A stretch of 40,921 nt of DNA from Candidatus Taylorbacteria bacterium RIFCSPLOWO2_01_FULL_48_100 (GCA_001821135.1 MHSA01000013.1:1-40921); one strand, 5' to 3'. Counted from the stretch's first letter, positions 459 to 28,593 are shown. Made by a program: numbers and translations. The notes: a model not told the origin generated them from the sequence alone.

Positions 459-1244
459 ATGCACAAGAAATTGTGGCTATTACTAGGAGGGGCGGCGATG
501 TTTGTCGCGCTTCTTTTTGTATTGAAATATTCCTCGTTAGGTGATGGGCTTGTGTCGCTTGCGAGCAATGGCGGCGCGTGGCTCTTGCCGATCGTAGCCA
601 TCGCCGCGCTTTTAGACAGCATCAATCCGTGCGCCTTCTCGGTTCTTCTAATTACAATCGCGTTTCTTTTTAACTTAGGCAAACCGCGCCGCGAAGTGCT
701 TGCGCTCGGAGCGTCATACATCGCAGGTCTCTTTGTTGTGTATCTTTTTATCGGTCTGGGTCTGCTTCAAGCGTTGAACTTATTCGGTGTTCCGAACTTT
801 ATGGGGCGGCTCGGCGCGGCGGCGATTATCGTGTTTGGGATATTAAACCTGCTTGGCTATTTCTTCCCGCACATAAAATGGCTCCCAGGCATTCCGCAAA
901 GCATGCATCAGAAAATGGCTACGCTGATGGAAAAAGTATCGCTTCCGGCGGTGTTTTTGGTGGGCGCGCTTGTCGCGCTTTGCGAGTTTCCCTGCACTGG
1001 CGGGCCGTACCTTCTGGTGCTCGGGCTTTTGCACGACACGGCGACATATTTCAAGGGGTTTTGGTATTTAATTTTTTACAATATACTATTCGTATCGCCG
1101 CTTGTACTTATTCTGCTGGTTGCGTCTCAACGCGAACTGCTTGAAAAGGTAAGTGCGTGGAAGCGCGACAATATTGGTAAGGCGAAGTTGTGGATCGGCG
1201 GGCTTATGGTTGCACTAGGTATAATTATTATGTTTTTTGTATAG
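459..1244 (+). CDS. CcdA/DsbD-like transmembrane electron transporter (cytochrome c biogenesis family)
   Basis: Multi-pass hydrophobic protein with paired Cys motifs DSINPCAF and CEFPCTGGPY. Start moved to ATG 459, just after TATGCT. Confidence 0.75.
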   Translation: MHKKLWLLLGGAAMFVALLFVLKYSSLGDGLVSLASNGGAWLLPIVAIAALLDSINPCAFSVLLITIAFLFNLGKPRREVLALGASYIAGLFVVYLFIGLGLLQALNLFGVPNFMGRLGAAAIIVFGILNLLGYFFPHIKWLPGIPQSMHQKMATLMEKVSLPAVFLVGALVALCEFPCTGGPYLLVLGLLHDTATYFKGFWYLIFYNILFVSPLVLILLVASQRELLEKVSAWKRDNIGKAKLWIGGLMVALGIIIMFFV

Positions 1245-20663: not shown

Positions 20664-21353
20664 TTATTTCCACCTCTTTGCTTCCAGCGCATTGGCGGCG
20701 GCGTCTTGCTCCGCTTCTTGTTTTGACTTACCTTCCCCTTCCGCCGCTTTTTCGCGCCCGAGAAATACCGCAACAGTGAAGTGTTTGTCGTGGTCGGGAC
20801 CCGTCTCGCGCACCGTTTCGTACGAAGGCGTGACGCTAGCGATTTCTTGCGCCTTTTCTTGAAACTTGCTTTTTGCATCCATCCACTTCCCTTCCGCCAC
20901 AATGCTGTCGGTCAAAGGGAGTACAAATCGCGACACGAAGTCGCCCACTTTCGCGTATCCGCCATCCAAGTACAGCGCGCCGATGAGTGCTTCAATCGCG
21001 TTTGCGAGGATAACCTCGCGCGCGCGACCCGTATCCTTCGCCTCGCCTTTGGAAAGGAGCATATAATCGTTCATACCAAGCCGTTCCGCAACGCCTGCAA
21101 GTGTTACTGCATTCACAAGCGCCGAGCGGTACAAGGTCATATCGCCCTCGTTTTTGTGCGGATATTTCTTAAACAAAAACTCCGTCGTCAAAAGCTCAAG
21201 CACCGCGTCTCCGAGAAATTCCAACCGCTCGTTGTGTTCGGTCTTGAGTTTCTTGTTTTCGTTTAGATACGAGCGGTGCGTGAAGGCGGTCTTAAGTAAG
21301 CCCTTATCTGCGAAATCTATGCCTATCTTTTTCTCAAAAGAATCAAAATTCAT
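20664..21353 (-). CDS. rnc: Ribonuclease III
   Basis: AFTHRSY, NERLEFLGDAVL, EALIGALYLD, C-terminal dsRBD. Confidence 0.97.
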   Translation of the reverse strand: MNFDSFEKKIGIDFADKGLLKTAFTHRSYLNENKKLKTEHNERLEFLGDAVLELLTTEFLFKKYPHKNEGDMTLYRSALVNAVTLAGVAERLGMNDYMLLSKGEAKDTGRAREVILANAIEALIGALYLDGGYAKVGDFVSRFVLPLTDSIVAEGKWMDAKSKFQEKAQEIASVTPSYETVRETGPDHDKHFTVAVFLGREKAAEGEGKSKQEAEQDAAANALEAKRWK

Positions 21354-22264
21354 TTCTTTAATAAAATATTTACGGCTTTTGTTACAATCGGCAAAGTGTC
21401 GGGGTAAAAATTAAGATTGACTATATCTTTTAGCTTAAACCACTGTGCATCGTCCAGCCCGCCCGAAGTGCCTAGCGTTAGCGGCGTGAACGCCGACTCG
21501 CCTAGGAAATAATGCACCTGTTTGCGAATCTTGCCCTTTTCGGGGTCGGACGCAATGTATTCGTTAAAACCGATCGGCTCTTTTATTGTAATATCCAAAC
21601 CGAGTTCTTCTTTAATTTCGCGAACAGTTCCCGTTTCAACGCTCTCGCTCGCGATGTCGGGAGTGTCTCCTATTTTGCCTTTGGAAAGCGTCCAGTGCCC
21701 GAAAATGTCGTGCACCAGAGCGATGTAAGTATCGCCTTCGGCTTTTGCGTACACTACCGCGCCACCCAATTTCTGAATAGGCATCTTTTCGTATGGCACA
21801 TCTGCGGGGCGCTTTTTGCGTTTCGGAGCGTCGGCTTTTCCCGGCTCGCCAAGCTCGCGGTACACGGAGCCGAGTACACCATTTACAAACCTGCCGCTAG
21901 CGTCCCCGCCGTATGTTTTCGCAAGTTCTATCGCTTCGTTAATCGCAACTTTTGCCGGCACTTCTTTGCGGTCTGCAAATAAAAGTTCGTAAAGCCCGAG
22001 CCGCAAGACATTGCGGTCTAAATATGATATTCGTTCAATCGGCCATTCAGGCGCCGCCTTGCCGATAATATTGTCAATTTCTTTGCGCTTTTTCAGCGCG
22101 CCGTTTATGAGTGTGTGTACAAAGGAGTTGTCTTCTATGCCCGGCGCAAACTCTGCGATGTTGCGCGCTTCTATCTCCGCAAGCGCCTTTTCTGGAAGCG
22201 TGCGGAAATCCCACTCAAAGAGGGATTGGAGCGCTATTGACCTGCCAAGGTGCCTGTTTGCCAT
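21350..22264 (-). CDS. nusB: Transcription antitermination factor NusB fused to a C-terminal Nudix domain
   Basis: DRNVLRLG, VAINEAIELAK, FVNGVLG; then WTLSKG...REIKEELGL Nudix box. Confidence 0.92.
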   Translation of the reverse strand: MANRHLGRSIALQSLFEWDFRTLPEKALAEIEARNIAEFAPGIEDNSFVHTLINGALKKRKEIDNIIGKAAPEWPIERISYLDRNVLRLGLYELLFADRKEVPAKVAINEAIELAKTYGGDASGRFVNGVLGSVYRELGEPGKADAPKRKKRPADVPYEKMPIQKLGGAVVYAKAEGDTYIALVHDIFGHWTLSKGKIGDTPDIASESVETGTVREIKEELGLDITIKEPIGFNEYIASDPEKGKIRKQVHYFLGESAFTPLTLGTSGGLDDAQWFKLKDIVNLNFYPDTLPIVTKAVNILLKK

Positions 22265-22279
22265 AATTATCAAGAAACT

Positions 22280-22480
22280 TTACTTTGCTTTTTGTTTTTT
22301 TGATTTTTCAACTACATTAACAACTGTTCTTCCCCTATACTTCCCGCAATTGGCGCATGCCGTATGCATCATTTTCAGTGCCTTGCATTCGGGACAGGGC
22401 GAAAGTGCTTGCGCACAAAGCTTGTGGTGCGCGCGCCTTTGGTCGCGACGGCCTTTTGTTGAACGCATTCGGACTACCAT
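22280..22480 (-). CDS. rpmF: 50S ribosomal protein L32 (zinc-ribbon type)
   Basis: MVVRMRSTKGRRDQRRAH, CPEC, CANCGKYRGR; start moved to ATG 22480. Confidence 0.93.
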   Translation of the reverse strand: MVVRMRSTKGRRDQRRAHHKLCAQALSPCPECKALKMMHTACANCGKYRGRTVVNVVEKSKKQKAK

Positions 22481-22507
22481 ATGTAAACAGTATAGCAAAT
22501 TATAAAA

Positions 22508-22549
22508 TAAAAGAAAAGGCGCGTCCCGACATACTGTCGTGGACGCGCC
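22508..22549 (-). terminator. Intrinsic terminator of the upstream minus-strand gene
   Basis: GGCGCGTCC.CGACA/TGTCG.GGACGCGCC stem followed by a T-run on the minus strand. Confidence 0.7.
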
Positions 22550-22566
22550 GTGACCAAACCAAATCC

Positions 22567-23172
22567 TCAATCTGAAAGGTATTGCTGATACCTGGCATCG
22601 GAAATGATACCCGCATACCGTTTGCACACCGCACTGTCTTTTGCAAGGACAGCAAGCGCCCGCAATAGAGCAATCCTATGGAAAAGCACACCGCGCTCTT
22701 CCATAAGTTCAAACAGTTCTGCGGCTTCGTACCAGCGCGGAGGACTCAGTGTCTCGTCTCCACGCCCGTGTTTACCCTTTTCAATTTTCGCAGTTTTTCG
22801 CAACTCGCCGCGGAGGTCAGAAAGCAGAAACACAATCTTCTCGTGAATTCCACCCCCTTTCTCCGGGTCGCCGTCGCATTTTTGCACATAAATCGGTTTT
22901 TCTTGTGCAAAACAAAAACCGAAATCACTTGGGTTTTCTGGAATTTCCTGATGTGCACCGCTGATGGCGGTTTGCTCTGGGGTCTCCCCCTCAATACCCG
23001 TCTCCGTTGGAAACTTGTAGGTTGTCCAAGGGTTACAGTTTTTTTGTATTGTATACTGAAATGCCAGAAAGCGGATTTCTCCCACCCCCATTGCTTCGTA
23101 GAAAACCAACACCGCGGAATGCGTAATCTTTACGCTATTCGCACTGTTTGGTCGTCCTTGTGTTGTATTCAT
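22567..23172 (-). CDS. Hypothetical protein with a degenerate Nudix-like box
   Basis: YKFPTETGIEGETPEQTAISGAHQEI resembles GX5EX7REUXEE but lacks the REUXEE residues. Confidence 0.55.
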   Translation of the reverse strand: MNTTQGRPNSANSVKITHSAVLVFYEAMGVGEIRFLAFQYTIQKNCNPWTTYKFPTETGIEGETPEQTAISGAHQEIPENPSDFGFCFAQEKPIYVQKCDGDPEKGGGIHEKIVFLLSDLRGELRKTAKIEKGKHGRGDETLSPPRWYEAAELFELMEERGVLFHRIALLRALAVLAKDSAVCKRYAGIISDARYQQYLSD

Positions 23173-23190
23173 TTTTCCCTCTCGGGTTGA

Positions 23191-23254
23191 ATCCCGTTAG
23201 AAGCAAGGAATCTTTGATTCCTGCCGCAACGAAGTTGCGGGCTTCTAACGGGAT
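23191..23254. repeat. Y-shaped palindromic REP/MITE-like element
   Basis: 14-bp terminal IR ATCCCGTTAGAAGC/GCTTCTAACGGGAT enclosing two 7-bp hairpins (AGGAATC-TTT-GATTCCT; CCGCAAC-GAA-GTTGCGG). Confidence 0.7.
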
Positions 23255-23352
23255 GAATGTTTTTGTGCGTCTCAAGGTGCCTCGTCCACACGGACGACCT
23301 TTCAACTCTGTTTTCTAGTATAACACAGGGTATACGAAATAGTCAAATCAAC

Positions 23353-23452
23353 AAAAAAGCGGCGGGTGATTTCTCACTCGCCGCTCCGTACATTACAACA
23401 CAGCACTTAATAGAACTGCAGATTACTATACAGTGCCCGATAGAATATAACT
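23353..23452 (-). ncRNA. Pentamer-periodic candidate guide RNA unit A
   Basis: AGT ta TAT tc TAT cg GGC ac TGT at AGT aa TCT gc AGT tc TAT ta AGT gc TGT gt TGT aa TGT ac, then GG + hairpin AGCGGCG...CGCCGCT + T-run. Confidence 0.75.
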
Positions 23453-25277
23453 ATCTCACCAACGCGAGCGCCTCCTTCACGCACTGGTCAAGCGTCAAGT
23501 CGCCTTTGTAGGCAACCTGAAGCGTTTTCGGCAGTGCGGAAAAGACAATGCGCCGGAACTGCTGGGAGATGAAGAAGACGACGCCCAAGTCGTCTACGCG
23601 CCGTATATTTCGCCCCCGCACTTGAAGCACGAAGAGCTGAACGCGCCAATTCCATATTGCCCATCGCCGCGAACCGTATCGCTGTTCTTCAAACATACTC
23701 CGCGGCTCGTACATAGGCATATATGGAGGTCGGAGAGCAAAGATTGCGGGTGCAATCTGCTTCGGCAAATCAATACCTTCGCTGAAGTTTGCCGATGTGC
23801 CGACTAGACAATCCCCCTCTCCTTCCCTGAAACGGAGCGCGGCTTCGCGCGCGGTAACGCCGTTGCCGTACGAAACCGCTTTCACTCCCTCTTCTTCCAT
23901 AAGAGCGACGAGTTTCTCCCGCTCTTTGTTTGCAACCACCACATGGAGTGAATGGATTCCCTGTCTCGCTAGTTTTTTCGTTGCCCGCGCCATCCTACGC
24001 ATCACATTCGTAACCGTACCATGCTTCTGTTCTTTGAACGCAAGGTTCGGCGTGTCGGTAGGCATATAGACGGCGGTATTCTCTGGCGGAAACGACGGCG
24101 GGAGCGACAAGAACGGAAATTGAATTCCCGATTCCTGCCCGAAGATTTCGCTGTCCCCTATCGTGGCGGATAGCGCAACCGTCGTCTTCCCAAGCAGGCA
24201 CTTCTTCACGAGCGCCGCGACATAATGCGAGCAGACCACAAGTTTGTTGATTACCCGCTTATCTTTCGTCTCTTCTTTCTCATGGTACGCGTATGTGTAC
24301 GCGAGCGCGCCGCGGTTCGCGAGCGGAAGTGAGAACTCAAGAGAGCGGATGTAGCGGCGCAAGTTAAGCGCCACACCTTCCACCTTCTTGAAAATCTCCA
24401 GATTATCTTCCGCTTCAATCGCATCGCTTTTAATCGCTTTTGCGATGGAGCGCGACAATGCGCCCCCGTCTATCGTTTCCAGTATCTTGATAAGCGCGCT
24501 TATTTCCTCAGCATCCAAAAGGATGCGGTGTTTCTTGCGGACAATCTCAATCATTCTCTTGCGAAAATGCTCAAGCGCCGCGGCAGTTTCATGCTCTTCC
24601 ACTTTTTCTAAAATGGAGATTGCCTGTTCCAAGTGCCAATCGGTAATGTCGTACGACAACGCCGAGCGCACGAGCTCCGGCACGCGATGCCCCTCGTCAA
24701 TGACGAGAAGGTCGGGCTCAGGAAAGTCCTTTGAGAATAGCCGTTTGAAGAGGTAGAACGCAAAGGTCGTCAAGACCGGCTTGCGTGATACCTTCGCTTG
24801 ATGATTTTGCAGATAGTAGGGGCACGCGAGCGCACCTTTCTCCTGCACTTTGCCGGTTTCCTGGTCCACGAAATGCGGACATACTCGGCAGATGGTGTGC
24901 GGAATCTCGTCCGCAGTGAACTTCGTTTTGGACTCGCGCGTCAGGTTTGTCTTATCCCGTTCATAGAGAAAGCACAGGAAGTCGCTTCGCCCAAACGCAA
25001 CTGTAAAGACATCGGGAAACCGTTCGCGGTACTGGTCGGCAATGGTCTTGGTTGGAACCGTTACCACGCACTTCTGAAAGTGCTTCGCCGCCGTCTTTGC
25101 AAGTGTTGTTGCAATTTCTGTCTTGCCGACCCCCGTCCAGAGTTCATGCACGGACGAACCGTGTCCCGCTATGAAGCGGAGTGATGATTCTTGTTCCGAA
25201 CGCATACCGCCACTATATATCCCGTCTTTCGGGAATTGGGACTTTAGCTCGTCCCAGCTGAGCCAATGATGTTGCAT
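23451..25277 (-). CDS. DinG/XPD-family SF2 helicase with putative Fe-S cluster
   Basis: Q-motif MRSEQ, Walker A TGVGKT, four Cys (CFLY, CRVC, CPYY), DEGH, LSAT, EGIDLP, QVRGRNIR. Confidence 0.85.
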   Translation of the reverse strand: MQHHWLSWDELKSQFPKDGIYSGGMRSEQESSLRFIAGHGSSVHELWTGVGKTEIATTLAKTAAKHFQKCVVTVPTKTIADQYRERFPDVFTVAFGRSDFLCFLYERDKTNLTRESKTKFTADEIPHTICRVCPHFVDQETGKVQEKGALACPYYLQNHQAKVSRKPVLTTFAFYLFKRLFSKDFPEPDLLVIDEGHRVPELVRSALSYDITDWHLEQAISILEKVEEHETAAALEHFRKRMIEIVRKKHRILLDAEEISALIKILETIDGGALSRSIAKAIKSDAIEAEDNLEIFKKVEGVALNLRRYIRSLEFSLPLANRGALAYTYAYHEKEETKDKRVINKLVVCSHYVAALVKKCLLGKTTVALSATIGDSEIFGQESGIQFPFLSLPPSFPPENTAVYMPTDTPNLAFKEQKHGTVTNVMRRMARATKKLARQGIHSLHVVVANKEREKLVALMEEEGVKAVSYGNGVTAREAALRFREGEGDCLVGTSANFSEGIDLPKQIAPAIFALRPPYMPMYEPRSMFEEQRYGSRRWAIWNWRVQLFVLQVRGRNIRRVDDLGVVFFISQQFRRIVFSALPKTLQVAYKGDLTLDQCVKEALALVR

Positions 25278-25353
25278 ATTAACCTTTCTTTTTGGTTGTC
25301 AAACAACCGATTTCCCAGTTACTATATAAGCATAATAGATAATTTAAGTCAAG

Positions 25354-25446
25354 AAAAAGCGGCTCAAGACGAATCAAGAGCCGCTCCAGACAGGACTGAA
25401 CCGGAACCGAGCGTGGCGACACTGAGCGTAAGCCCGCAGAACTACG
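25354..25446 (-). ncRNA. Pentamer-periodic candidate guide RNA unit B with its own promoter
   Basis: AGT tc TGC gg GCT ta CGC tc AGT gt CGC ca CGC tc GGT tcc GGT tc AGT cc TGT ct, then GG + AGCGGCTC...GAGCCGCT + T-run. Promoter TTGACA-N17-TTGAAT with TGn extension (25481-25453). Confidence 0.75.
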
Positions 25447-25517
25447 GAGTTCATTCAAGCATATATTAAATATGCTGTCAATCTTGCGCAGAAAAATCAG
25501 CCGTATATACTAAACAT

Positions 25518-25576
25518 ACACTTTGACTCCGAAAGGAGTTCCGAGGCACCCCGATGAAAATCGGGGTGCCGTTTTT
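25518..25576 (+). ncRNA. Candidate small RNA convergent with the MazF-like gene
   Basis: TTGCGC-N16-TATACT (25484-25511), ACTCC-GAAA-GGAGT hairpin, then GGCACCCCGAT-GAAA-ATCGGGGTGCC + T-run. Confidence 0.55.
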
Positions 25577-25985
25577 ATGCTATGTCACGATGTATTTCTC
25601 GCAACTGTGCGAAATCTATTGGCGGCATCAATCCAACAAAGCGCAAAAGCCGCTTACTGCTCAGGACGCGCATTTGCGATAGATTTGCGATAAATCGTTC
25701 CCCGTTGTTTTTAAATAAAAGTCGGTATGCTCCTTCTTTTGCTTTCGTTGAAATGGGAATCGCTAAAAATGTTTGCGGGTTAAACTTTTTGAAAATGATG
25801 ACAGGCCGTTCAAAATTACCGTGTTTTCCATTCTCCTCGCTTCCAATGTTGTGCCCGATACTCGCCCACCAAATCTGTCGCTCTCTGAAATATACTTCCG
25901 TCTCTGCAAAATGAATGCGTGGTTTGAGCGTTGCCCACTCCGAGAACCAGCTCAGTATCCTTTCTTTTGGGATGATCTTTTTCAC
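25575..25985 (-). CDS. Orphan PemK/MazF-family endoribonuclease toxin
   Basis: QIWWASIGHNIGSEENGK..FERPVII, AIPIST, LSQMRVLSSKRL; GTG start just after TGTTAAAAT. Confidence 0.85.
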   Translation of the reverse strand: MKKIIPKERILSWFSEWATLKPRIHFAETEVYFRERQIWWASIGHNIGSEENGKHGNFERPVIIFKKFNPQTFLAIPISTKAKEGAYRLLFKNNGERFIANLSQMRVLSSKRLLRFVGLMPPIDFAQLREIHRDIA

Positions 25986-26008
25986 AAAACTATTTTAACA
26001 CAGGTATG

Positions 26009-26124
26009 AAAAAAGCCGCCCCAATTTTAAACTGGGACGGCTCCGGACGCAACAACAGAAGACCAAACCTAACTACGCGCTGCGGAACTGGAGGTAACTG
26101 TGCGAAACCCCGCGAAGCCCGATA
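26009..26124 (-). ncRNA. Pentamer-periodic candidate guide RNA unit C
   Basis: TAT cg GGC tt CGC gg GGT tt CGC ac AGT ta CCT cc AGT tc CGC ag CGC gt AGT ta GGT tt GGT ct TCT gt TGT tg CGT cc, then GG + AGCCGTCCCA...TGGGGCGGCT + T-run. Confidence 0.8.
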
Positions 26125-26130
26125 AGTTAT

Positions 26131-26235
26131 AGCGGAGGATGAAAGAATCACCAGCCGCTCCGAACTCAACGCGACCGATGCCAACAATATTCTGAACAAG
26201 TCAGGTTTGCTCAACTCCGACGAGCGTGACCTGGA
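26131..26235 (-). ncRNA. Pentamer-periodic candidate guide RNA unit D (more degenerate)
   Basis: GGT ca CGC tc GTC gg AGT tg AGC aa ACC tg ACT tg TTC ag AAT at TGT tg GCA tc GGT cg CGT tg AGT tc, then GG + AGCGG...CCGCT hairpin without a T-run. Confidence 0.6.
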
Positions 26236-26240
26236 AGGTT

Positions 26241-26978
26241 TTACACCCCCGCGAGTTCGCGGAGGTCCGCGGGCGCGTCAGAGAGGTCGTACTCAACGAC
26301 CGAAATCTCCACCTTGGCGTCCTTCACCGGCAAAATTTCCATCTTGCTGATGACGAATCTGCCGAAGCGGCCGCGGTGAATTGGGTTCCAGTCGCAGAGA
26401 CCGATTTTCCTGCCGGCGGTCTCGACGAGTGCGACCACCGTGTCGCGGCCTATGCCTCGTTTCGTATCAAGCCGGACGGTGAACGAGGTCTCCCAATGTG
26501 GGATGCGCGGGCGCGTAATCGCCACAGCGACTTTCTTTCCGCCGGAGTCCAGATTGCCCTTTGCGAGGAGGCTGTAGAACGGAATGTTGCCGTCCTTGTC
26601 GGTGTCTTTGAAGACGCAGAAATCCTCGGGAAAGTCCAAAAACTCAAAAAGAGTAGTGGACTTCGCCGTAGAAATCTGATTCTTGCCGGATTTTACATAT
26701 CGTCCGGCTCCGACAAGGCACGCAATCATGTTTTGCATCGGGAAGCCCATTTTCGCCGGTGAGCCGTTCGTACCGCTTTCAGAGCGGTAGAGCTTGGTGC
26801 CGGATTCTTCCTGCACGCTCCAATCGGTGCGCTTCTGGCTCTGCTGTCTCTGCCTCAAGACCGTGTCCAAGAAGTCGGGGTCGTTGCCCGGATTCTGCAA
26901 CATTCCCGGAGAGAGATTCTTGAGATGGAATCTCAAAAACTCTGCCGAAACCGCTGTCGTGATAATCGTTTCTTTCAT
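26241..26978 (-). CDS. RAMP/Cas7-like protein (Vipr-like)
   Basis: N-terminal strand LRFHLKNLSPGMLQN; GFPMQNMIACLVGAG (compare RAMP IPxxxxKGxxR helix); RPRIPHW; C-terminal Gly-rich loop AGRKIGLCDWNPIHRGRFGRFVI. Confidence 0.65.
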   Translation of the reverse strand: MKETIITTAVSAEFLRFHLKNLSPGMLQNPGNDPDFLDTVLRQRQQSQKRTDWSVQEESGTKLYRSESGTNGSPAKMGFPMQNMIACLVGAGRYVKSGKNQISTAKSTTLFEFLDFPEDFCVFKDTDKDGNIPFYSLLAKGNLDSGGKKVAVAITRPRIPHWETSFTVRLDTKRGIGRDTVVALVETAGRKIGLCDWNPIHRGRFGRFVISKMEILPVKDAKVEISVVEYDLSDAPADLRELAGV

Positions 26979-27128
26979 ACCGTATCTTCTTTCTGCACTT
27001 TACCCCTCCATATTTCAGTTGGGATAGGCGTTTTTGCCTCTGTGGTTTAGTTGACGAAGAGCGTTGTTTAGCAATATAAAAATCGCCTCCAAACGCTAAA
27101 CAGCAACTCAAGTTGCCATCTATAAAAA

Positions 27129-27157
27129 AGGTTAGCATAGTGTTGATTTGGTGTCAA
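27129..27157 (-). promoter_or_regulatory. Sigma70-type promoter for the RAMP-like gene
   Basis: TTGACA-N17-TAACCT with TGn extension on the minus strand. Confidence 0.6.
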
Positions 27158-27186
27158 ATATGTGTAAGTGAGTCGTTGTGTTATAC

Positions 27187-27278
27187 AAAAAAGCCCCGAC
27201 AACTTGGTTGTCGGGGCTCCGCAGGATACCAAACTCGGCGTAAGAAAACTCGACTACACTTAACGGAACCAAAATCCA
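27187..27278 (-). ncRNA. Pentamer-periodic candidate guide RNA unit E with its own promoter
   Basis: GGT tc CGT ta AGT gt AGT cg AGT tt TCT ta CGC cg AGT tt GGT at CCT gc, then GG + AGCCCCGACAAC...GTTGTCGGGGCT + T-run. Promoter TAGACA-N17-TAAGAT with TGn extension (27313-27285). Confidence 0.75.
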
Positions 27279-27348
27279 AGAATCATCTTATCATAAATAC
27301 CTATTTCTGTCTATATTTTGTTATTAAGATACGATCGTATCTTAATTG

Positions 27349-27942
27349 CTAAATGTGAATAAACGACTGGCGGTGGATTGGAGAAAGACCGTGCAGGCGG
27401 AGCATTTCATAGTGCAATTTTGTGCCGTACCCTTTGTGAATATCAAAACCGTACTGAGGGAATTGTTTTGCAAGTCGTACCATTCTGCAGTCGCGGCATA
27501 CTTTTGCGGCAATGGAAGCGAGCGCAATCAGCAGTTCCTTTTCGTCTCCGCGAACTATTGTTTTTTGTTTTGTAAAGTGCGCCGGAGCTTTCAACCCGCC
27601 GTCTAGAAGCACGAGGCATGCATTCGGTTCTATGTTTAATTTTTTAAGCACTCTGTATATTCCAACGCGAAGCGCGCGCGCCATCCCTTTCTTGTCTATA
27701 GTCCGATGCCCCACGAACGCTGTCGCATATTGAACCATTCCCCCGCTTTCATTTTCTTGCATCACCGTAAACCATTCGTCGCGCTGTGTTGGTGAGAGTT
27801 GTTTACAGTCCTTCACACCCGCGAACGCGCAGCGACATACTCGCATCTTACCCGCTTCCACCGCACACGCTCCGATACACAAAGGTCCCGCCAACGGTCC
27901 GCGTCCGACTTCATCTATGCCGATGATGTACTCTGTGCGCAT
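27349..27942 (-). CDS. rnhB: Ribonuclease HII
   Basis: GIDEVGRGPLAGP, VKDCKQL, LLDG, KTIVRGD, ASIAAKVCRD, HKGYGT. Confidence 0.95.
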   Translation of the reverse strand: MRTEYIIGIDEVGRGPLAGPLCIGACAVEAGKMRVCRCAFAGVKDCKQLSPTQRDEWFTVMQENESGGMVQYATAFVGHRTIDKKGMARALRVGIYRVLKKLNIEPNACLVLLDGGLKAPAHFTKQKTIVRGDEKELLIALASIAAKVCRDCRMVRLAKQFPQYGFDIHKGYGTKLHYEMLRLHGLSPIHRQSFIHI

Positions 27943-27967
27943 TGAGGTATTTTAACATCCATTCAGA

Positions 27968-28109
27968 ACATCCTCCGTCTCCCTACGGGAGACACCTCCC
28001 TCAAGGGAGGATTTTCCGAAGCTCCACCTTTTAAGGGGGGTTGGGGGGATGTAAGAAACAACATCTCTCCCCCTCGCTCCGCTCGGGTACTCCCCTCAAG
28101 GGGAGATTT
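27968..28109. repeat. Cluster of REP-like palindromic units upstream of the DUF559 gene
   Basis: Three units of the form ACATC(C/T)...hairpin...CTCCCCTCAAGGGGAG or its inverse ...AAGGGGG...GGGGGATGT. Confidence 0.75.
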
Positions 28110-28135
28110 AATGAGGCGGATGTATAATTGTGTAT

Positions 28136-28489
28136 ATGCACTCTCGCCTACCCTACAATAAAAAACTGACACAAAGGGCGCGAGCGATGAGAACGGTAAG
28201 CACGCTGTCCGAAGTATTGCTGTGGAATCAACTTAAAAAGAAAAAATTAAATGGTTTACAATTCTATCGCCAATTTCCCATTCATAATTACATTGTTGAT
28301 TTTTACTGCAAAGAAATTAAGCTTGCAATAGAAATTGACGGCGCGATTCATCAAACAACACGAAAAGAAGACACATTCAGACAGCGCGAAATTGAGTCAT
28401 TGGGCGTTTCTTTTCTGCGTTTCCGAACATCTGAAGTTGAGAAAGATATTGGGAGTGTGCTCATTCGCATCAAAAACTTCTCCTCATAA
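28136..28489 (+). CDS. DUF559 / Vsr-like endonuclease domain protein
   Basis: RARAMR, EVLLWNQL, FYRQFPI..YIVDFYC, LAIEIDG..H, GVSFLRF. Confidence 0.9.
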   Translation: MHSRLPYNKKLTQRARAMRTVSTLSEVLLWNQLKKKKLNGLQFYRQFPIHNYIVDFYCKEIKLAIEIDGAIHQTTRKEDTFRQREIESLGVSFLRFRTSEVEKDIGSVLIRIKNFSS

Positions 28490-28593
28490 TTCCCCCCTTG
28501 AGGGGGGTGCCGAGGTTTGACGAGGCGGGGGATGTAGAGAAAAACATCCCTCCCTCCGCCTGCTGGCGGAGTACTCCCCTCAAGGGGAGATTT
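28489..28593. repeat. REP-like palindromic pair downstream of the DUF559 gene
   Basis: CCCCCCTTGAGGGGGG...GGGGGATGT followed by the inverted ACATCCC...CTCCCCTCAAGGGGAGATTT. Confidence 0.75.

Follow-up and report, generated by a model that had tools for sequence, protein, structure and literature searches.

The window analysed here, 40,921 nt of Candidatus Taylorbacteria bacterium RIFCSPLOWO2_01_FULL_48_100 (GCA_001821135.1, MHSA01000013.1:1-40921), is contig C13 of a 644,823-bp genome in 25 contigs, from a host of the Patescibacteria (Candidate Phyla Radiation, CPR). On its minus strand the gene order is rnhB, a 245-amino-acid (aa) open reading frame (ORF), a PemK/MazF-like ORF, a 608-aa helicase, a 201-aa ORF, rpmF, a NusB-NUDIX fusion and RNase III, and four intergenic stretches of 23173-27348 carry five in-phase tracts of N-G-Y-N-N pentamers, all on the same strand as the genes. 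This locus very probably represents a chromosomal helicase-type VIPR (Viral Interference Programmable Repeat) system carried on a 4-kb mobile CPR island. Its features are listed below, the labels vr1 to vr4 denoting the candidate guide RNAs.

23350-27348, no strand assigned: inserted island as a whole, delimited by the island-free neighbours in relatives and by a leader alignment with a related genome.
27285-27313, minus strand: vr1 promoter-like site (TAGACA, 17 nt, TAAGAT, the latter preceded by TG; consensus match only).
27187-27270 (tract 27221-27270), minus strand: vr1, 10 pentamers, 8/10 of them NGY, with a GGAGC-hairpin tail and a T-run.
27220-27190, minus strand: vr1 terminator-like site with a 14-bp stem.
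26241-26978, minus strand: vipr, encoding a 245-aa Vipr-family RAMP protein by profile match to SUSP1 Vipr and by model fold.
26131-26186 (tract 26162-26186), minus strand: vr2a, 5 pentamers, 4/5 NGY, with an internal-type tail.
26009-26119 (tract 26045-26119), minus strand: vr2b, 15 pentamers, 13/15 NGY, with a GGAGC-hairpin tail and T6.
Immediately upstream of vr3, minus strand: promoter-like site TTGACA-17-TTGAAT.
25354-25443 (tract 25388-25443), minus strand: vr3, 8 pentamers, one extra base and 3 further pentamers, all NGY, with a tail and T5.
23451-25277, minus strand: XPD/DinG-type superfamily 2 (SF2) helicase of 608 aa, an accessory (vap-like) gene, by Pfam, PADLOC and PDB profile.
23353-23442 (tract 23388-23442), minus strand: vr4, 11 pentamers, 8/11 NGY, with a tail and T6.

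The 245-aa protein, which ends in the C-terminal motif AGRKIGLCDWNPIHRGRFGRF and matched no Pfam family, had been read as RAMP-like in an initial annotation made from the sequence alone, and both profile and model comparisons bear this out. In a single-sequence search of the PDB, the Vipr of SUSP1 (36pp_D) was the sole chain matched (E 0.022), and a profile of 45 homologues matched the same chain with E 8.9e-11 (next match E 0.74) over an aligned stretch comprising only residues 130-195 of the profile, which covers the thumb and the glycine-rich loop. Among the SUSP1 residues compared (H17, D177, R138, W178 and R179), no equivalent of H17 could be aligned, and R156, D196 and W197 of the window protein align with SUSP1 R138, D177 and W178, which contact G1 and G2 and of which mutation of D177 or R138 abolishes silencing (10.64898/2026.04.26.720927). 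An AlphaFold2 model of the protein (predicted local distance difference test score 87.5, predicted template modelling score 0.79) places a beta-hairpin at 135-159 and the loop rich in glycine (G-loop) at 189-208. Foldseek against the PDB gave 43 matches at E <= 0.001; the 33 listed are all CRISPR effector chains, mostly Csm3/Cas7, and the best among those listed is 7uzw_A (E 3.3e-5), with 6ifn_F and 6ifn_E also present and TM-scores of 0.40-0.50. The Foldseek library ends on 8 April 2026 and no Vipr chain is among the matches listed; chain E of 6IFN was also the query used by the discoverers of VIPR (10.64898/2026.04.26.720920). Although Csm3/Cas7 of type III-A systems thus provides the best fold matches of the model, aa identity is only 8-15%, no Cas10 or Csm partners lie at the island, and a Vipr protomer is expected to span 5 nt rather than 6. 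Root-mean-square deviations are high (6-15 A), and the likeness is therefore limited to the RRM-thumb-G-loop core.

Outside the structural databases, the protein matched phrog_4652, a phage family without assigned function, along its full length (E 1.2e-10), and its family is large, with 501 cluster representatives retrieved at E <= 0.001. A tblastn search of phage records returned weak matches only, the best being Pseudomonas phage LESphi2 (E 4e-4). Its homologues are named Parcubacteria or Patescibacteria, and ten that were looked up are all annotated as 'hypothetical protein', none of them (0/10) with an accession named in the VIPR preprint. On these sequence and model comparisons the 245-aa protein is a Vipr, with a predicted RAMP fold made up of an RRM core, a thumb hairpin and a glycine-rich loop.

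The design of the RNAs as read in the sequence is 5-15 N-G-Y-N-N pentamers followed by a constant GG-A-G-C hairpin handle, every tract running into GG-A-GC and a hairpin and four of the five ending in a T-run. The exception is vr2a, the first unit of a two-unit array, whose imperfect hairpin ends in GCUA without a T-run. Hairpin energies were -22.4 kcal/mol for vr2b and -20.5 kcal/mol for vr4, the latter RNA beginning 8 nt past the helicase stop codon. Given a background GY frequency of 0.129 in the genome, the chance expectation per genome is ~2-3e-4 for each of vr2b and vr3, the one-base slip in vr3 being a post-hoc reading. On the tract alone vr1 and vr4 are not significant (3 and 11 expected) and vr2a (4/5 units) is not significant at all, being recognised solely by its tail and its place in the two-unit array. 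A search of both genome strands gave 1187 GGAGC sites, and only four of them follow at least 6/8 in-phase NGY units, namely vr2b, vr4, vr1 and a site at C12:~663-703 (minus strand, 6/8 NGY), which has no hairpin or T-run and lies near a contig end.

The analysis was extended to relatives by a scan of species-representative genomes, from which 33 vipr loci (L001-L033) were fetched; comparison genomes carry G numbers, G000 being the genome of the window. Tracts were retained with a filter of our own (7 or more NGY units, a tail that begins with GGA and folds at <= -9 kcal/mol, and location on the gene strand), which also removed the opposite-strand rows, all of the lowest score (5/8). In total 67 tracts from seven loci passed, 3 from the window and 5, 14, 12, 13, 9 and 11 from L001-L006, respectively, with a length of 8-16 units (median 11). 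Over their 741 units, position 1 was near uniform (A.33, C.24, G.24, T.19), position 2 was mainly G (.86, with C.11) and position 3 was T (.71) or C (.28). The filter partly dictates the frequencies found at positions 2 and 3, but not the absence of purines at position 3, which extends even to the units failing it. The tail consists of GG and an 11-bp hairpin with compensatory changes at 10/11 pairs among 69 sequences (the 67 filtered tracts plus vr2a and vr3, added by hand), the first three pairs (A-U, G-C and C-G) being nearly fixed and the remainder covarying. Tails internal to an array end in GCUA and terminal tails continue into a T-run, and terminal tails therefore double as terminators.

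A close relative, L001, whose Vipr is 84% identical to that of the window, has an almost identical vr3 promoter, tail and helicase promoter, whereas the guide tract between them differs; the vr3 terminator is also conserved, and L001 has one more RNA unit at this place. In the relatives' islands an RNA block, complete with terminator and a promoter-like TGTGATAAAAT box, stands before each gene, so that these islands look like a series of 'RNA block plus gene' cassettes. A divergent locus in the same genus (G414) has the helicase next to vipr and at least 16 tracts, and distant homologues from Caldilineaceae (L018-L033) have canonical GGY-NN arrays beside vipr. In a contig of a DPANN archaeon (Woesearchaeota; L007:1596-5811), two vipr paralogues, a helicase of the same family (40% identity) and 7 tracts whose tail differs (GGAACAGGGGC...) were present; the vipr-helicase module therefore crosses the line between bacteria and archaea. 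The five tracts had been annotated from the outset as sharing one grammar, (NGY-NN)n-GG-hairpin, while differing in sequence. All five were read in phase, and in homologous loci period-5 tracts on the gene strand co-occur with vipr.

The helicase had likewise been recognised as of the DinG/XPD type, and Pfam, PADLOC and the PDB profile agree on this. Specifically, Helicase_C_2 scored above its Pfam cut-off and DEAD_2 below it, ResIII was also matched, the best profile matches in the PDB were XPD, FANCJ, CHL1, Rad3 and DinG, and the PADLOC typeIV_DinG model PDLC01439 matched over the full length (E 4.5e-39). NCBIfam cas_csf4 gave 34 bits against a cut-off of 400, and the solved CasDinG was not among the profile's PDB matches at E <= 0.01; for both reasons the helicase was not filed as CasDinG. 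The Walker A GxGKT (G49, G51, K52, T53), DExH (D194, E195, H197) and QxRGRxxR (Q552, R554, G555, R556) motifs are kept in 21/21 homologues. Between motifs Ia and II lie four cysteines, of which C102, C133 and C152 are invariant and the fourth is at position 127 (17/21) or 130 (4/21), never both; they may well form a metal cluster of the XPD kind. The public record of the helicase is 584 aa long, and the 608-aa reading used here starts MQHHWL, 25206-25277 being the differing stretch. The longer start is probably the true one, since MQHHWL is conserved in L002-L006.

In tblastn comparisons the helicase adjoins vipr in L001-L009, the nine closest of the 33 loci, and in none of L010-L033, and vipr and helicase are neighbours in 11/12 loci of the CPR/DPANN clade. 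A Pfam search of ten selected neighbour ORFs from eight distant loci and L022 gave no helicase, the families found on those ORFs being a prophage tail protein, a PD-(D/E)XK nuclease, a GNAT acetyltransferase and a tRNA synthetase.

As described in the discovery preprint, VIPR systems consist of Vipr and vrRNAs of 9-16 YNNGG repeats whose NN bases are read at a one-base skip, each vrRNA combining a hypervariable tandem-repeat tract with an invariable structured tail (10.64898/2026.04.26.720920). The same source distinguishes seven types, places 25.5% of loci in prokaryotic chromosomes, ascribes 'DNA nucleases or helicases' to types III-V and gives NNNGG, YNNNG and NNNNG as alternative repeats (10.64898/2026.04.26.720920), and the NGY-NN repeat of the window equals YNNNG. 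According to 10.64898/2026.04.26.720927 it is unclear what the accessory helicases and nucleases do, 21/99 period-5 clusters including WGT/NN and TGH/NN are reported as non-canonical in 10.64898/2026.10.21.760802, and the words helicase and nuclease are absent from the main text of 10.64898/2026.10.15.759431; a literature search on helicase-type VIPR found nothing beyond these four preprints. The locus shares with published VIPR systems a single small RAMP protein homologous to SUSP1 Vipr, tandem-pentamer RNAs with two variable bases and a constant structured 3' tail, several intergenic RNAs around the genes, an accessory gene adjoining vipr, the lack of Cas1 or a CRISPR array, and a patchy, mobile distribution. 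It differs in having N-G-Y-N-N rather than GGY-NN as its repeat, an XPD/DinG-type helicase as its accessory, and a chromosomal location in a CPR host. From the helicase-only content we infer, by elimination, that it most likely belongs to VIPR type IV. The initial annotation had already proposed a VIPR-like system, and the Vipr homology, a repeat of a published type and the covarying tail all support that proposal. It had also taken the configuration to be undescribed; this no longer holds, since cellular loci, helicase accessories and YNNNG repeats are already in the preprint (10.64898/2026.04.26.720920).

The absence of cas1 and of a repeat-spacer array, also part of that first description, was upheld within the scope of the searches. 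Cas1 (PF01867) was found in 0/1 own genome with a control detected in 7/14 named genomes, cas2 and cas6 not having been searched genome-wide; Tandem Repeats Finder found no repeat array in the window; and the three other island proteins scanned had no PADLOC family match, Cas models included. The sole spaced repeat in the genome comprises three copies of a 96-bp in-frame repeat (G000:C3:2420-2700) encoding the peptide LTAQQIVDLAKAAGD... Type IV-A CRISPR-Cas resembles the locus in combining a Cas7-like RAMP filament on a guide RNA with a DinG-family 5'-3' helicase and no nuclease. Interference in type IV-A proceeds by binding rather than cutting, and CasDinG is the 5'-3' translocase required for this nuclease-free interference (PMC10450177, PMC12714560, PMC11519345). 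By contrast, the island has no CRISPR array, its guides would be read gapped, and its helicase keeps the four cysteines whereas the iron-sulfur domain of CasDinG is vestigial (PMC10450177).

Possible targets of the guides were sought in several collections. The own genome was scanned with skip rules 0-3, additional unassembled DNA outside the 25 contigs being possible. With a 1-nt skip the best values (15/20, 21/30 and 16/22) equalled the skip-0 and skip-2 control levels, and full matches occurred only at skip 3, where they are the RNA genes themselves; there is no self-target at the published threshold. In IMG/VR, four exact 8-unit seeds matched 3, 20, 7 and 12 stretches, none of which extends into the remaining units above chance, and 11 of the 20 stretches of one seed come from a single series of related records. 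Even with up to 3 mismatches allowed, the complete vr2b pattern was absent from 401 genomes of the class, and exact searches of JGI metagenome contigs with 11 units of vr2b and 10 units of vr1 gave no stretches for either. Similarly, when the 67 guides from the seven loci were compared with 1.41 Mb of DNA, reading NN or NNN at skip 0-2 (six rules), nothing exceeded the chance level, the two values of 0.9 in this comparison being seeded loci. These blanks say little because the scans need exact runs and CPR phages are poorly sampled. The most likely targets are foreign elements, namely CPR phages or plasmids, rather than the host genome.

A mechanism can be proposed by homology with SUSP1 and by analogy with type IV-A. 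The five small RNAs, of ~55-110 nt, would be transcribed, four of them from a promoter-like site, either their own or shared, and four ending at a predicted intrinsic terminator. One Vipr protomer would bind each pentamer with G2 and Y3 in pockets, as R156, W197, D196 and the SUSP1 structures suggest. The two variable bases would be displayed and would pair with a DNA strand skipping every third base, each RNA specifying 10-30 bases over 14-44 bp; the pairing code assumed for this clade comes from homology. By analogy with CasDinG, the helicase may then be recruited to the bound filament and translocate 5'-3', and it could extend silencing or strip and expose the target, no nuclease being encoded in the island. 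Position 1 of the pentamer might conceivably serve as a third guide base, giving a denser code than the published NN, since this position is compositionally free in the clade.

The other genes and flanks of the island, together with the cargo ORFs of its relatives, are as follows.

27349-27942, minus strand: rnhB, island flank.
25575-25985, minus strand: PemK/MazF-like RNase gene of 136 aa (Pfam PemK_toxin 32.6 bits against a cut-off of 23.1, E 9.9e-8; phrog_9567).
22567-23172, minus strand: ORF of 201 aa without a Pfam, NCBIfam, PADLOC or PHROG family.
~22280-22480, minus strand: rpmF (L32), island flank.
L001:5976-6452 and L002:8768-9256: NYN RNase genes, from the island ORFs of relatives.
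L003:2588-3214 and L003:5824-6237: DUF3800 genes, from the island ORFs of relatives.

The limits of the island were set by comparison with related genomes. In G413, G409 and G401 the order is dnaE, rnhB, L32, nusB and rnc without an island, and in G418 rnhB, the 201-aa gene and L32 are contiguous, that genome having its own VIPR island beyond dnaE, so that the islands of G000 and G418 occupy different sites. Promoter and leader of the 201-aa gene can be aligned to G418 from ~23345 downwards, right up to the vr4 terminator. From the rnhB/L32 neighbours in relatives and this leader alignment the island is therefore placed at ~23350-27348, close to the coordinates first annotated for minus-strand genes between rpmF and rnhB. 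Vipr is present in 3/19 genomes of the genus (G000 included) and in 0/12 genomes from other genera of the order. By these genome comparisons the ~4-kb island is a mobile or accessory element. The DNA of the window was found in groundwater and soil metagenome runs, with no RNA run among those listed for it, and contigs of four DNA runs were aligned to the window. In a single contig of run X12 (depth 2.8), 26098-26241 is exchanged for 20 other letters, which removes vr2a and vr2b's 5' part and hints, if only weakly, that the RNA regions turn over; contigs of relatives diverge from the reference exactly at both ends of the helicase gene (23452 and 25278).

The 201-aa ORF was considered as a VIPR part and rejected, having no family match and lying outside the island, as judged from its also adjoining rnhB in G418. 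A 52% identical copy occupies the same place in G418, and none was found between rnhB and L32 in G413, G409 and G401. Upstream of this gene and rpmF, 23173-23345 (minus strand) contains a promoter-like TTGACT-18-TATACT and a ~150-nt leader, the first 90 nt of which, hairpin GGTCGTCCGTGTGGACGAGGCACC included, hardly differ in G418; after them the window has an extra ~65-nt stretch with its own inverted repeat. A search of Rfam over 22000-28500, this leader included, gave nothing above chance-level rows. A possible regulatory leader is formed by the ~200 nt between the vr1 terminator and the vipr start (26979-27186, minus strand), where two inverted repeats occur, GGCAACTTGAGTTGCTG and AGCGTT...AACGCT. 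Near the flanks lie the NusB-NUDIX fusion gene (21350-22273) and a DUF559 (Vsr-like endonuclease) gene (28130-28489), the latter also beside rnhB in G418.

The mazF gene was described at first as an orphan, and indeed no antitoxin-like ORF adjoins it, the small ORFs beside it having no Pfam family. Membership of a type II MazEF module was considered and rejected, the toxin domain being present with no adjacent antitoxin ORF. By tblastn its homologues are 42% (L001) and 34% (L002) identical and were not found in L003-L009; the gene is present in 3/11 helicase-type loci and is probably island cargo rather than a component. Relatives carry other genes amid their RNA blocks, with NYN RNase genes found in L001 and L002 and a pair of DUF3800 genes in L003. 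The helicase-type island of L003 also holds, after its own RNA block, a second, very divergent vipr paralogue (L003:7311-7928), which aligns with Vipr in hhalign (probability 87.5%, E 3.6e-6) and has the G-loop AGKQ-GIGLFHPPKK-QFGQF. An ORF similar to this paralogue lies at L005:10867-11502, the hhalign comparison having covered the L003 copy only.

Several observations weigh against a helicase-type VIPR system at this locus. No target was found for any guide of the window in the own genome, the 401 class genomes, the IMG/VR seeds or the JGI contigs, transcription of the five tracts is predicted from sequence, and the functional link between helicase and Vipr, drawn from gene adjacency, is likewise putative. 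One member of the clade, L022 (Parcubacteria, 36% identity), has no helicase within 6 kb. With no match to a solved CasDinG, the analogy with type IV is therefore one of function and not demonstrated kinship. At the level of the RNAs and their binding, the tail is a plain 11-bp hairpin, often a terminator, where the SUSP1 clade has a pseudoknot; SUSP1 R179, which contacts Y3, aligns with N198 in the window although most of the family has R; vr2a has only 5 units and vr3 a one-base phase slip; and the window has five RNAs against 5-14 (same filter) in relatives. The last three of these points, together with the strain variant lacking 26098-26241 (a single contig), would also fit a decaying or idle remnant in which the genes are intact and the guide set is reduced and partly damaged. 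This reading is improbable, as all three ORFs are open and of full length, neither the helicase motifs and cysteines nor the G-loop and thumb residues of Vipr are damaged, promoter-like and terminator elements are present, and L001 also has 5 RNAs.

Two further explanations assign the RNAs a different role. Setting of the island amid housekeeping genes and the record of a type IV-A1 system with a chromosomal target (PMC11551745) would be consistent with vrRNAs directing Vipr to host chromosomal promoters or genes as a form of host regulation. Absence of the island from 16/19 genomes of the genus and its other site in G418 make such a role highly improbable. Instead of being guides, the repeat RNAs could control the RNase genes next to them (MazF, NYN) as RNA antitoxins or regulators. 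The layout is reminiscent of type III toxin-antitoxin loci, in which the toxin gene lies behind a repeat RNA and a terminator. The window's mazF has no adjacent protein antitoxin gene; here, as in L001 and L002, the gene comes directly after a vrRNA terminator, and in the latter two loci vrRNA blocks are also followed by NYN RNase genes. However, the same RNA blocks precede vipr, helicase and DUF3800 genes and the second vipr paralogue, the RNA-rich loci L004 and L006 show no mazF by tblastn, and the RNAs track Vipr and not the RNases, their grammar being the published Vipr-binding one; an antitoxin function is barely credible.

The helicase-type VIPR reading thus remains the preferred one. 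VIPR was first described in 2026, and the work reported so far deals with type II systems carried by phages, in which silencing is by binding; the variant seen here, with a helicase accessory, a relaxed first base and a cellular locus, is mentioned in those preprints and not characterised. The locus provides a compact natural example of this uncharacterised helicase type, with a 245-aa Vipr, a 608-aa helicase and five predicted hairpin-handled RNAs, and the relatives with varying guides and fixed handles would aid the design of reprogrammed guides. The pairing of a RAMP filament with an XPD/DinG helicase might even predate CRISPR arrays, helicase-type VIPR being the source of the Cas7 and CasDinG of type IV and the helicase turning a static gapped RNA-DNA contact into long-range target clearing, although we regard this as unlikely. 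The same vipr-helicase module in a DPANN archaeon bears on transfer between small-celled lineages. For the host, the island represents a predicted RNA-guided system in a 0.64-Mb CPR genome without detected Cas1.

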